This document shows, in pieces, positions 8,101 to 11,100 of a stretch of 64,000 nt of DNA. Made by a program: the position numbers. The DNA lies in assembly GCF_045037415.1 (NCBI RefSeq), contig NZ_CP173438.1; one strand, given 5' to 3'. This DNA is from Escherichia coli (GTDB taxonomy: Bacteria > Pseudomonadota > Gammaproteobacteria > Enterobacterales > Enterobacteriaceae). How positions within the stretch are numbered: position 1 is the first letter of the stretch; every line of letters begins with the position of its first letter.

Positions 8101-11100
8101 TTCTGAAAAAGGCAGCGCGGTACTTTGCAAGGGAGCCCGACTGAAGTACCGCTTCATCAACGATCACCGTGAAATCTGGTCGATCGTAACAATGTGTCGG
8201 GTTCTGAAGGTCGCCCGTGCGGGATTTTACGTCTGGCTTCATCGCCCTGTTTCTGCCGGAGAAAAGGATAATCAGCGGTTGCTGGAGCTCATCCGCGATG
8301 CTTATGCACTGAGCGGCGGAGTCTACGGTTATCGCAGGGTTCACGGCGATCTTCGTGAAATCGGTGAAGTATGCAGCAGAAACCGTGTTGCCAGAATCAT
8401 GAAGCGGAACAGGATACAGGCCGTACATGGCTATAAGGTCCCGCGTGGCGTCAGGGGAAGGCCGTCACTGATAGCTCCTAATCGCGTACAGAGGGAATTT
8501 ACGATGGTAAAACCCAACCAGGTGTGGGTGACTGATATTACCTACAGTGTGCCCGGAGTTCAGGGCGGGCATGGATGCTTAAATGAACCGCGAGTCTGTC
8601 TGGAATATTGAGCCGGTAACTCACGATGAGAAACCCAACAATCCCACCGGGTGTGACGGTGGAGAACCTGAGCGGCAGTGACCTGCGGCATGCCCGCAGG
8701 GTGATGTAACCCGCTGACAACGGGGATTGAGGCGAGATCACTAAGCCGAGATGATCCTCAAGGTTAAGTACTGAAAGGCTGAAGAACATGAACCCGTTAA
8801 TCCGCCTCTGTGGGTTGAAAACGTCACCACGGCCTACGTGATCTGACAGGCCGTGCAGGAGGAACTGGCAGTGATACGTAAGCACTGCCGGTCGAAGGTG
8901 TTTTGACATGTATGCGAAACACCGGGGCAGCAGCGTCTATCACGCTTGCGTTGCTGACTTCTGCCAACTTGCGGCAAGCAAGGATAAAGAGTGCGACGGG
9001 CAGCCTCCTCAGTATGCCTGAGTCCAGGCAGGTAAACCGGGGAAGGTCAGCGACGGATGTTAAGGGGGCATGGCTCCGATGACGCGCTGGCTGGCGGAGC
9101 TTCCGTAGTAGTCCGCGATGGGGAAAGCCCATTACATGGCGAAGGGAAGCAGTTTGAATGTGTTTGCGACGTGAATTAACTGACCTAACGAGGTGAAGAC
9201 CTTTGATAATCAGCGAAATGCAACGCAAGCTTGCCACATGGGCAGTCACCGATCCGTCCCTACGGATTCAACGGCTGCTGCGTCTGATAACACAACCAGA
9301 ATGGCTGGCTGAAGCGGCGCGGATCACGCTTTCATCAAAGGGGGCCCATACCCCCGGCGTTGATGGCGTGAACAAAACAATGCTACAGGCCAGACTGGCT
9401 GTTGAGCTGCAAATCCTCAGGGATGAATTACTCTCAGGCCACTACCAGCCCTTGCCCGCCAGACGGGTTTACATCCCTAAAAGCAACGGCAAACTGCGAC
9501 CACTGGGTATCCCCGCGTTGCGGGATCGTATTGTTCAGCGGGCCATGCTGATGGCGATGGAGCCGATATGGGAGAGTGATTTTCATACGCTCTCATATGG
9601 CTTCCGGCCTGAGCGCAGTGTCCACCACGCGATCCGCACGGTGAAATTACAGCTCACAGACTGTGGTGAAACCCGGGGACGCTGGGTGATTGAAGGCGAC
9701 CTGTCCAGTTACTTCGACACCGTACATCATCGACTGCTGATGAAGGCTGTACGCCGCAGGATCAGTGACGCACGTTTCATGACTCTGCTGTGGAAAACCA
9801 TCAAGGCGGGACATATCGATGTCGGTCTCTTTCGGGCGGCCAGTGAAGGTGTGCCACAGGGCGGTGTTATATCGCCGCTATTATCGAACATCATGCTGAA
9901 TGAGTTCGATCAATACCTGCATGAGCGCTACCTGAGCGGGAAAGCCAGAAAAGATCGGTGGTACTGGAATAACAGTATCCAACGGGGCCGAAGTACGGCG
10001 GTCAGAGAAAACTGGCAGTGGAAACCCGCGGTGGCGTACTGCCGCTATGCCGATGATTTTGTCCTCATCGTCAAAGGCACCAAAGCACAGGCGGAAGCCA
10101 TCAGGGAGGAGTGTCGGGGTGTGCTCGAAGGCAGTCTGAAACTCAGGCTGAACATGGATAAGACTAAAATCACCCATGTTAATGACGGCTTTATCTTTCT
10201 GGGGCACAGGATCATTCGCAAACGCAGTCGTTATGGCGAGATGCGAGTGGTTCAACGATCCCGCAGGAGAAAGCCAGAAACTTCGCCGCATCGCTGACAG
10301 CACTGTTATCAGGCAACTACAGTGAAAGCAAAGTCGATATGGCTGAACAACTCAACCGAAAACTGAAAGGCTGGGCCATGTTCTATCAGTTCGTTGATTT
10401 TAAGGCCAAAGTCTTCAGTTATATCGACCGTGTCGTGTTCTGGAAGCTGGCTCACTGGCTGGCCCGCAAATACCGTACAGGTATCGCTTCCCTGATGAGG
10501 TGGTGGTGTAAATCACCGAAACCGGGTCAGAGCAAAACGTGGGTTTTATTTGGTAAAACCAATCACGGCAAGCTCAGCGGCGAAATACTGTACCGGTTGG
10601 TGGGGCAAGGCAAGAAGCTGTTCCGCTGGCGGCTACCCGAAGGTAATCCCTATCTGAGGACGGAGACCAGAAACACGTATACATCGCGCTTTACAGAAGT
10701 GGCAATGGCGTTCGCCAGCATTTAAATGGAGAGCCGGATGCGCTGAAAGGTGCACGTCCGGTTCGGGGAGGAGAGGCAGGGAAATAGTCCGACTACGCCC
10801 TGCCTCTTACTCTACTCCGCACCTGGCAGGGTTGGCTGTATCTGGCGGTGGTTATCGATCTTTTTGCCCGTAATGTGGTGGGCTGGTCGATGAAACCAAC
10901 GCTGTCGCGCGAGCTGGCACTGGATGCGCTGCTGATGGCAGTCTGGCGGCGTAAGCCTGCAGAAAACGTCATAGTGCACAGCGATCAGGGCAGTCAGTAT
11001 GGCAGTGATGACTGGCAGCGGTTCTGCAGGGCCAACAATCTGGCGCCGAGTATGAGCCGTCGTGGCAACTGCTGGGATAATGCGGTGGCAGAATCGTTCT

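Follow-up and report, generated by a model that had tools for sequence, protein, structure and literature searches.

A run of five A's followed by a G lies at 8103-8112 of the stretch of Escherichia coli DNA analysed here (64,000 nt, hereafter the window), where two reading frames of an insertion sequence overlap and the second of them is interrupted by an intron. The question raised by this locus is whether the run makes ribosomes move from orfA into orfB by programmed -1 frameshifting and so gives an OrfAB transposase, as the preliminary description proposed. Our analysis indicates that 8103-8112 is very probably the signal by which ISEc24, an IS3-family element common in E. coli, programmes -1 ribosomal frameshifting; this signal is real, ordinary, previously known and annotated.

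The interrupted element is ISEc24

The element at 7801-11299 is named ISEc24 (IS3 family) by PGAP, and the fused protein described below matches NF033516 transpos_IS3 end to end (profile 1-369/369, single stretch, 427.9 bits, cut-off 160), which agrees with the earlier assignment to the IS3 family. Without its 2269-nt intron ISEc24 measures 1230 bp, inside the IS3-family range of about 1.2-1.5 kb, and it has the two consecutive ORFs of the family, the second of which, orfB, lies in the -1 frame and shares part of its length with orfA. Its ends are:

7801..7825, + strand: left terminal inverted repeat of ISEc24, TGGAGTGCCCCCAAGCCCGTAGACA; homology with 14 IS relatives from other genera begins at 7801
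11275..11299, + strand: right terminal inverted repeat of ISEc24, …TGTCTACCGGAATGTGGTCACTCCA; homology with IS relatives stops at 11299

The left repeat and the reverse-complemented right end agree at 20/25 positions. The termini are TG…CA, and the imperfect repeats (TGGAGTG…GTAGACA) have the form seen at IS3-family ends. Ends placed by eye, TGAACCAC… at 7766 and …GGTCA at 11294, were wrong, as the 14 relatives set them at 7801 and 11299. A direct repeat of 3-4 bp (target-site duplication) does not flank 7801-11299, the flanks being ttc and ctt; such a duplication is the footprint of an insertion event and not a property of the element. One relative, L006, is surrounded by a 3-bp TAA direct repeat (TAA/TAA). 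ISEc24 is usually single-copy (median of one per genome), and its locus in ST131 is fixed; 66 plasmid copies occur, and E. coli genomes carry up to four copies. The searchable literature names ISEc24 in passing only and yielded no measurement of its frameshifting; the supplements of PMC4066793, searched for ISEc24 and ISEc15, held nothing specific.

A single putative slippery motif lies in the orfA/orfB overlap

The coding features of the element are as follows:

7860..8144, + strand: orfA, encoding a 94-aa HTH_Tnp_1 DNA-binding protein (ORF list, translation; PF01527, E = 5e-19)
8087..8144, + strand: orfA/orfB overlap of 58 nt, the only stretch where a -1 shift joins both frames
8105..8111, + strand: putative shift site G_AAA_AAG (A_AAG tetramer in an A5G run), recognised from the sequence, fusion identity, homologs and IS3 codon homology
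8111..8546, + strand: 5' part of orfB (exon 1) in the -1 frame, to …VWVTDITY; 100% identical to the uninterrupted ISEc24 of strain SK1144 through 8546
10816..11264, + strand: 3' part of orfB (exon 2), starting IRTWQGWLYLAVVIDL… and ending at TGA 11262-11264; it encodes the larger part of the rve catalytic core

orfA runs from ATG 7860 to TGA 8142-8144 with 8103 in phase, and 8103-8112 (CTGAAAAAGG) reads CTG AAA AAG GCA (L K K A) in the 0 frame. The last upstream stop of the -1 frame is TGA 8084-8086, and that frame is open from 8087; because orfA itself stops at 8142-8144, the shift must fall in 8087-8144. As had been claimed, the ORF list and the translation show the -1 frame running into a typical IS3 OrfB N-terminus (…SEKGSAVLCKGARLKYRFINDHREIWSIVTMCRVLKVARAGFYVW…). 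AAAAAG is the sole slippery motif inside the overlap, with A_AAG in phase at 8108-8111. The hexamer itself is common, with 71 occurrences on both strands of the window against 54 ± 8 expected (about 30 on the + strand), and arithmetic from these counts gives about 0.01 in-phase AAAAAG expected by chance within the 58 nt; the real support for the putative site is its positional conservation in 69 homologs.

Fusion by a shift at AAA_AAG gives a 378-aa protein (…ERDILKK|GSAVLCKG…) with the junction sequence …ERDILKK-GSAVLCKGARLKYRF… and the expected junction peptide DILKKGSAVLCK. By exact look-up in the protein collection, this fusion is identical to the recorded ISEc24 transposase, a protein present on 500 contigs or more; nine neighbouring alternative junctions are absent from that collection, in support of this shift position. 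The intron-free ISEc24 gene of SK1144, at the same locus, is given in RefSeq as a two-piece CDS marked 'programmed frameshift', a label given by homology. Pfam recognises HTH_Tnp_1, HTH_21 (residues 137-190) and rve (residues 218-315) in the fused protein, a DDE transposase.

The slippery A5G run proposed at 8103-8112 thus stands in sequence and phase; its class has to be corrected, as it is a tetramer-type site and not a full heptamer. The run is preceded by G, so the site, G_AAA_AAG, departs from the canonical X_XXZ_ZZN and the P-site AAA would re-pair with GAA. With G at heptamer position 1 tandem re-pairing would therefore be imperfect, and efficiency may be low.

The A-run is kept at the same codon in all homologs

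Among homologous loci with a recognisable region, from across Proteobacteria, 69/69 carry the A-run at the same codon: A_AAA_AAG in 34, G_AAA_AAG in 19, A_AAA_AAA in 13, T_AAA_AAG in two and T_AAA_AAA in one. The canonical heptamer is present in 47/69 homologs, but not in the ISEc24/ISEc15 lineage. The 19 loci with G_AAA_AAG, which also keep orfA and orfB intact and retain the downstream hairpin, come from no fewer than 10 genera (Escherichia, Salmonella, Mixta, Pantoea, Serratia, Kosakonia, Citrobacter, Klebsiella, Samsonia and Lonsdalea). None of the intact homologous copies, which span many genera and 56-97% OrfA identity, has another shift site; intact copies shifting frame elsewhere, named in the preliminary description as the observation that would speak against it, were not found. 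At loci L054, L006 and L078 a -1-frame TAA ends directly before the equivalent of 8108, so that the shift can fall only at or after AAA_AAR there, and nothing slippery follows AAA_AAR.

Four loci with a run one base shorter (L029, L051, L055, L057) were considered as naturally fused variants and rejected: the deletion moves orfB to the +1 frame, and they are therefore broken copies or homopolymer assembly errors. Six further loci, listed with a 'shift 0' or an odd overlap (L017, L052, L066, L036, L032, L047), are tblastn/ORF-tracing artefacts or disrupted copies and give no sign of another shift site.

A covarying hairpin lies downstream of the putative shift site

8117..8152, + strand: downstream hairpin of 11 bp (9 Watson-Crick, 2 G-U) with a 14-nt loop, after a 5-nt spacer from the shift site

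The 3' arm of this hairpin includes the orfA stop codon. Its RNAfold energy is -17.7 kcal/mol, with a modest z-score on the single sequence (-2.15; 6/200 shuffles fold equally well). In an alignment of 45 homologs, 94.9% of the cells are paired, compared with 31-47% in slid controls, and five pairs show compensatory changes with 26 double-change cells, a score matched by 0/500 shuffles; RNAalifold independently gives the same helix. A stem is predicted in 70/70 extracted sequences (the 69 homologs and the duplicate L001), among them those of the Xanthomonadales group, whose loop differs and whose orfA ends earlier. Part of this conservation reflects protein constraint, because both arms are coding. 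Empirical rules drawn from 271 IS3-family members place the structure 4-10 nt after the motif, with a G-C closing pair and a ΔG of at least 7.6 kcal/mol (PMC4066793); the ISEc24 hairpin has the 5-nt spacer, a G-C first pair and the energy given above.

The preliminary description had envisaged a stimulatory hairpin or pseudoknot, and it is the hairpin that is found conserved. Pseudoknot pairing is not: within 8076-8201, the only helix of at least 5 bp in at least 80% of 44 homologs is the hairpin itself. A candidate pseudoknot between the loop CCCGAC (8136-8141) and GTCGGG (8197-8202) is not shared by the homologs, whose codons at the downstream partner differ (CGA A, AGA G). An Rfam search of 6000-12500 (E <= 1) brought up intron and terminator-like matches only, with no frameshift element and no ALIL. 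An upstream Shine-Dalgarno stimulator was also considered and is unsupported for this copy, which has no clear SD-like element at the usual distance of 10-14 nt: GAGG 8085-8088 sits 16 nt before the motif, and at the place, 11 nt before the heptamer, where GAGGAG stands in many relatives, the window reads GAAGAA.

Proposed mechanism and comparison with known systems

In the model that we propose, most ribosomes would read CTG AAA AAG GCA… up to the UGA at 8142-8144 and make the 94-aa OrfA. A minority would slip back one base as tRNA-Lys decodes AAG 8109-8111, re-pairing with AAA 8108-8110, and the P-site tRNA-Lys on AAA 8106-8108 would find only imperfect re-pairing with GAA 8105-8107. Slipped ribosomes would go on with GGC AGC GCG… in the orfB frame and produce the 378-aa OrfAB transposase. 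The hairpin, which begins 5 nt past the motif, would meet the ribosome with the motif in the decoding centre and promote the slip. We infer the occurrence and the frequency of slippage, as well as the stimulatory role of the hairpin.

Characterised systems offer close parallels. No tetramer in E. coli shifts more readily than A_AA.G, which reaches 5.6% with the IS3 pseudoknot, and the comparison with characterised IS3-family windows that had been suggested places the ISEc24 site at the codon that corresponds to the proven IS3 site (PMC4066793). Likeness extends codon for codon (CAA_AAG GCC GCG ACA UAC UUC GCG in IS3, AAA_AAG GCA GCG CGG UAC UUU GCA in ISEc24; PMC4066793), and the two share the family, the tetramer-type site, tRNA-Lys slippage from AAG to AAA (presumed for ISEc24) and an OrfA stop inside the downstream structure. 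They differ in that IS3 has an A4G run and a pseudoknot, whereas ISEc24 has A5G and a simple hairpin with no conserved loop-downstream pairing in 44 homologs. IS1222, another IS3-family member, uses G_CGA_AAG productively, that is A_AAG without a slippery P-site codon (PMC5009743); its downstream structure is unrelated in sequence to that of ISEc24, at whose site Rfam has no match.

IS911 and IS150 have the same OrfA/OrfAB logic, with a -1 frame, lysine codons and a structure a few nt downstream (PMC5009743). Their heptamer, A_AAA_AAG, is also found in half of the ISEc24 homologs, whereas the copy in the window has G first; they use a stem-loop or three-way junction, in IS911 with an upstream SD, and ISEc24 has a single hairpin and no well-placed SD-like element. 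In E. coli dnaX, which combines A_AAA_AAG with an SD and a stem-loop, a plain stem-loop on the 3' side of a lysine motif is enough (PMC5009743), but dnaX is a cellular gene and its shift ends in termination, not fusion. IS3411 and IS629 belong to the IS3 family and use an ALIL (apical-loop internal-loop) pseudoknot, for which ISEc24 has neither a match nor conserved long-range pairing (8076-8201). RefSeq annotates an ALIL-type pseudoknot in the IS629 copy L083, host of the same intron as the ISEc24 copy.

orfB is split by a group II intron

8547..10815, + strand: group II intron of 2269 nt (GTGTG…CTAC), in sense orientation within orfB
9218..10297, + strand: truncated gene for the intron-encoded protein, with an intact RT domain and a reading frame that breaks off near 10252

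At this chromosomal position strain SK1144 (L001) has an allele free of the intron, in which 8546 is followed directly by 10816 and exactly 8547-10815 is missing. Domains V/VI are recognised by Rfam RF00029 at 10729-10815 (64.9 bits, gathering score 40); together with GUGYG…AY boundaries, an RT-maturase ORF in domain IV and the intron-less allele, these are the features of a bacterial group II intron. Thousands of near-identical intron copies are annotated ltrA, and an intact homolog of the intron-encoded protein matches TIGR04416 with 341 bits. Intron-in-IS arrangements are common in E. coli. Compared with L082 and L083, the maturase gene lacks one nucleotide; the sole Pfam domain in 9218-10297 is RVT_1, and the GIIM maturase domain is encoded out of that frame, at 10339-10725.

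Since the intron splits orfB, full-length OrfAB would need spliced mRNA, and the earlier statement that transposase production requires splicing was right in its logic, the intron now being recognised as a sense-strand group II intron. On unspliced mRNA, where orfB is broken after 8546, a shifted ribosome would stop at 8609-8611 and give a product of about 250 aa without most of the catalytic core, and spliced mRNA alone could yield the full-length transposase. Full-length transposase from this intron-bearing copy, with its frameshifted maturase gene, is doubtful; given the missing direct repeat, the usual single copy per genome, the intron split and the maturase out of frame, the signal may no longer yield active transposase.

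Other explanations for the conserved run

RNA polymerase, and not the ribosome, might join the frames by inserting an extra A in the A-run, so that orfA and orfB lie in one mRNA frame. Productive transcriptional slippage is known for longer homopolymers, about 7-9 or more, against which the ISEc24 copy has five A's only. Some relatives have longer runs (13 to 14 of the 69 homologs reach A7 to A8), and the four loci differing by one A show that the run is prone to indels, whether in the DNA itself or in its assembly. Some IS elements do use transcriptional slippage (review, PMC5009743), but it neither needs nor explains a covarying hairpin 5-6 nt downstream, and it leaves the last-base G preference (AAG in 55/69 homologs) unexplained; we consider it extremely improbable at this locus.

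It could also be that the motif is a relic in which A_AAA_AAG decayed to G_AAA_AAG, with little or no frameshifting, OrfB (if made) translated from a start such as ATG 8192, and the element immobile. The G at heptamer base 1, the single-copy median with its fixed locus in ST131, the copy without direct repeat and the conservation of ATG 8192 would all fit. That conserved ATG, however, codes for a Met inside the HTH_21 domain, so a protein begun there would be without the OrfA DNA-binding part, and G_AAA_AAG is stable over the 19 loci with their frames and hairpin intact. The plasmid copies, the multiple copies in some E. coli genomes and the TAA repeat around L006 form the pattern of a still-transposing element, and A_AAG alone is proven efficient in IS3 and IS1222. 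Decay of the motif is accordingly a very unlikely account, and programmed -1 ribosomal frameshifting is the reading that we retain.

Implications for ISEc24 and its relatives

Beyond correct annotation the finding has little importance. The orfA gene and both orfB halves are one gene, the ISEc24 transposase, read via a -1 frameshift, and not pseudogene debris. The shift is pinned to AAA_AAG 8106-8111, and a covarying hairpin with a presumed stimulatory role is documented for this IS subgroup. An unlikely, although conceivable, extension is that the ISEc24/ISEc15 lineage weakened its site (A_AAA_AAG to G/T_AAA_AAG via a Leu codon) for a lower OrfAB:OrfA ratio, that the transposase of intron copies would be doubly conditional on frameshifting and on splicing by a maturase that another intron copy supplies in trans, the resident maturase gene being broken, and that a dead OrfAB' of about 250 aa from unspliced mRNA could add inhibition. 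The non-canonical G_AAA_AAG appears to be stably used by a whole enterobacterial lineage, which fits the published efficiency of A_AAG in E. coli, and the intron-bearing ISEc24 copy would be a natural example of an IS transposase needing both recoding and splicing.

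The -1 frameshift signal of ISEc24

The orfA gene of ISEc24 ends within a short overlap with orfB, and the sequence at window 8103-8112 is CTGAAAAAGG.

7860-8144, + strand: orfA, ATG start at 7860, 94 aa, C-terminal end …ERDILKKAARYFAREPD, with position 8103 in phase

From 8103 the 0 frame reads CTG AAA AAG GCA GCG CGG TAC TTT GCA AGG GAG CCC GAC TGA, which places the A5G run in the orfA-orfB overlap and in the orfA phase (CTG AAA AAG), as the preliminary description had stated. The -1 frame has its final stop, TGA, at 8084-8086 and is open from 8087 (GRTGYSEKGSAVLCKGARLKYRFINDHREIWSIVTMCRVLKVARAGFYVW…), where it encodes the N-terminus of an IS3-type OrfB, also in line with that description. 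Given this last -1 stop and the orfA stop, a -1 shift is confined to the 58 nt of 8087-8144, and AAAAAG is the sole slippery motif within them. The hexamer alone is unremarkable (71 copies on both strands of the window versus 54 +/- 8 expected, about 30 of them on the + strand); the chance expectation of an in-phase AAAAAG inside the overlap is about 0.01.

The -1-shift proteins were built for each of the 19 overlap codons and ten were looked up by exact sequence. Only the …ERDILKK|GSAVLCKG… fusion is present in the protein collection, on record as ISEc24 transposase in at least 500 contigs, while the nine neighbouring junction proteins are absent from it; shifts after AAA and after AAG yield one and the same fusion protein. 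The fusion covers positions 1-369 of 369 of the NCBIfam IS3 transposase model in a single stretch (428 bits) and carries the HTH_Tnp_1, HTH_21 and rve domains. The proposal that an IS3-family OrfAB arises by a -1 shift is supported by this record and by the full-length match.

Conservation of the slippery run

A homolog scan limited to a single genome for each species yielded 80 loci, with 46-97% OrfA identity, in Gamma-, Beta- and Alphaproteobacteria, and an A-run lies at exactly the same codons in the 69 of them with a recognisable region. Its form is A_AAA_AAG in 34 loci, G_AAA_AAG in 19, A_AAA_AAA in 13, T_AAA_AAG in two and T_AAA_AAA in one. The window form, G_AAA_AAG, is that of the enterobacterial ISEc24/ISEc15 lineage, in which the preceding Leu codon is CTG, not CTA or TTA. 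In three homologous loci (L054, L006 and L078) this codon is CTT, creating a -1-frame TAA that ends just before the equivalent of 8108, so that the shift can occur only at AAA_AAR or later; no slippery sequence was found downstream of AAA_AAR in these three. The constant codon position in 69 loci and these stops speak against intact homologs shifting frame elsewhere. In four loci (L029, L051, L055 and L057, about position 1743 in each) the A-run is one base shorter, …AAAAAAGCC… versus …AAAAAAAGCC…, with orfB consequently in the +1 frame; the four would be broken copies, indel-prone homopolymers or assembly errors.

A covarying hairpin downstream of the motif

Of the two stimulators that the preliminary description had envisaged, a hairpin or a pseudoknot, the hairpin was recovered. 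Positions 8117-8127 (GCGGUACUUUG) pair with 8142-8152 (UGAAGUACCGC), 5 nt past the motif, through nine Watson-Crick and two G-U pairs closing a 14-nt loop (-17.7 kcal/mol, z = -2.15), and the 3' arm begins with the orfA stop UGA. Across 45 distinct homologs, aligned free of gaps, pairing holds in 94.9% of cells; sliding the partner by 1-3 columns lowers this to 31-47%. Changes on both sides occur in five of the 11 pairs (26 such cells; for example CGG/CCG to GCG/CGC, GCA/UGC, GUG/CAC and UCGG/CCGA), and none of 500 shuffles reached the observed covariation score. RNAalifold returned the same 10-bp helix unprompted, and in Xanthomonadales-type relatives, where the loop differs and orfA stops earlier, a 12-bp stem is kept. 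When every pair of columns in 8076-8201 was scanned, the hairpin was the only helix of at least 5 bp kept in at least 80% of homologs, and a pseudoknot is therefore not supported; Rfam gave no match at the shift site. Three empirical rules drawn from 271 IS3-family members ask that the stimulatory structure start 4-10 nt past the motif, be closed by a G-C pair and have a dG of at least 7.6 kcal/mol (PMC4066793), and the window hairpin conforms to all three. RefSeq annotates an 'AL1L pseudoknot' at 1041-1157 of L083, an IS629 copy carrying the same intron as the window; IS629 and ISEc24, with its plain hairpin, thus differ in stimulator type.

Mechanism of the shift

The tetramer most prone to shifting in E. 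coli is, by a wide margin, A_AA.G, which reaches 5.6% when combined with the IS3 pseudoknot, and tRNA-Lys(UUU) is an unusually slippery tRNA (PMC4066793). Among heptamers A_AAA_AAG is the best, and G_CGA_AAG is used productively by IS1222 (PMC5009743); of 490 predicted IS1/IS3 signals, 87 are tetramer sites. The IS3 cassette (…CAA_AAG GCC GCG ACA UAC UUC GCG…; PMC4066793) and the ISEc24 sequence AAA_AAG GCA GCG CGG UAC UUU GCA can be aligned codon by codon, which makes the window site positionally homologous to an experimentally proven one. Most likely, tRNA-Lys would slip in the A site from AAG to AAA, P-site re-pairing from AAA to GAA would be partial, and the hairpin would stimulate slippage, with OrfA (94 aa) and OrfAB (378 aa) as the expected products.

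Transcriptional slippage on the A-run could in principle give the same frame change, but it is unlikely, as the run has five A's only and the hairpin would be left unexplained. A reading of G_AAA_AAG as a decayed relic conflicts with the presence of intact elements of this form in at least 10 genera and on plasmids. As an IS3-family -1 frameshift signal the window site is typical and already annotated, and its sole particularities are the non-canonical first base and the plain hairpin stimulator.

Element identity, ends and neighbourhood

The 5' part (7750-8545) matches, at 100% identity, a segment that more than 500 E. coli genomes share and that bears the annotation 'IS3-like element ISEc24 family transposase'. 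An uninterrupted IS occupies the equivalent chromosomal setting in strain SK1144 (pth, ychF, integrase, IS); its transposase gene is recorded as a CDS in two pieces, 1136 nt in all, noted as 'programmed frameshift'. Window and SK1144 allele are identical up to 8546 and again from 10816, and 8547-10815 is therefore an insertion. Comparison with 14 related copies from other genera sets the IS ends at 7801 and 11299, giving 1230 bp without the insertion; the terminal repeats (TGGAGTG…GTAGACA) match at 20 of 25 positions and have TG…CA ends. No 3-bp direct repeat surrounds the window copy (ttc 7798-7800, ctt 11300-11302), unlike the relative L006 with its TAA/TAA flanks. In several ISEc24/ISEc15 relatives (L003 at 1402-1441, L004, L007, L013 and L012) the first 41 bp of the element (TGGA…CCCTATAGT) recur beside it as an extra copy, in direct orientation when on the left and inverted when on the right; L012 has such a copy on each flank. 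It looks as if the IS had a preference for inserting at one fixed point within the left end of another copy, or left solo ends behind.

The window copy follows a tyrosine integrase gene (6574-7749) at a distance of 51 bp, at an island edge adjoining ychF. Sub-threshold Rfam Leu operon leader matches at 6367-6498 on both strands (31 and 27 bits; gathering score 50) are probably a bidirectional terminator hairpin after ychF (AAAATCCACGCAATTGCGTGGATTTTT). The region downstream of the IS (11860-12300 and 13020-14255) holds fragments that the SK1144 annotation lists as pseudogenes of an ATP-binding protein and an IS91 transposase, as well as a DUF3999 gene. RefSeq marks the DUF3999 gene as frameshifted in SK1144; in the window a mechanical ORF list gives a 411-aa ORF with a GTG start at 13020-14255.

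A group II intron in orfB

8547-10815, sense strand: group II intron, GTGTG start and CTAC end, RT-maturase gene inside

Domains V/VI match Rfam RF00029 (64.9 bits). Of 5426 E. coli genomes, 2346 contain near-identical copies, most of them within IS3-family transposase genes. In ISEc15 (on many plasmids) and in IS629 the intron occupies the homologous site, …TDITY|I…, so that a conserved stretch of IS3-family orfB serves as its homing site. Only about nine genomes carry it within ISEc24 at the ychF-integrase locus, and most ST131-type genomes (e.g. SK1144) lack it there.

Because the intron splits orfB on the sense strand, full-length transposase would require splicing as well as the frameshift, as had been anticipated. 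If the mRNA stays unspliced, a ribosome that has shifted would terminate at 8609-8611, and the product of about 250 aa would have the DNA-binding parts and miss most of the catalytic core. Compared with two standard intron copies (L082 and L083), the RT-maturase gene has a 1-nt deletion near 10252 (10245-10260), which leaves the RT domain (ORF 9218-10297) intact and the maturase domain GIIM (ORF 10339-10725) out of frame. It is shared by only seven of 2661 E. coli records, most from one sequencing project, and this rarity points either to a mutation that inactivated the gene recently or to an error of assembly. If the deletion is real, splicing would need maturase supplied in trans.
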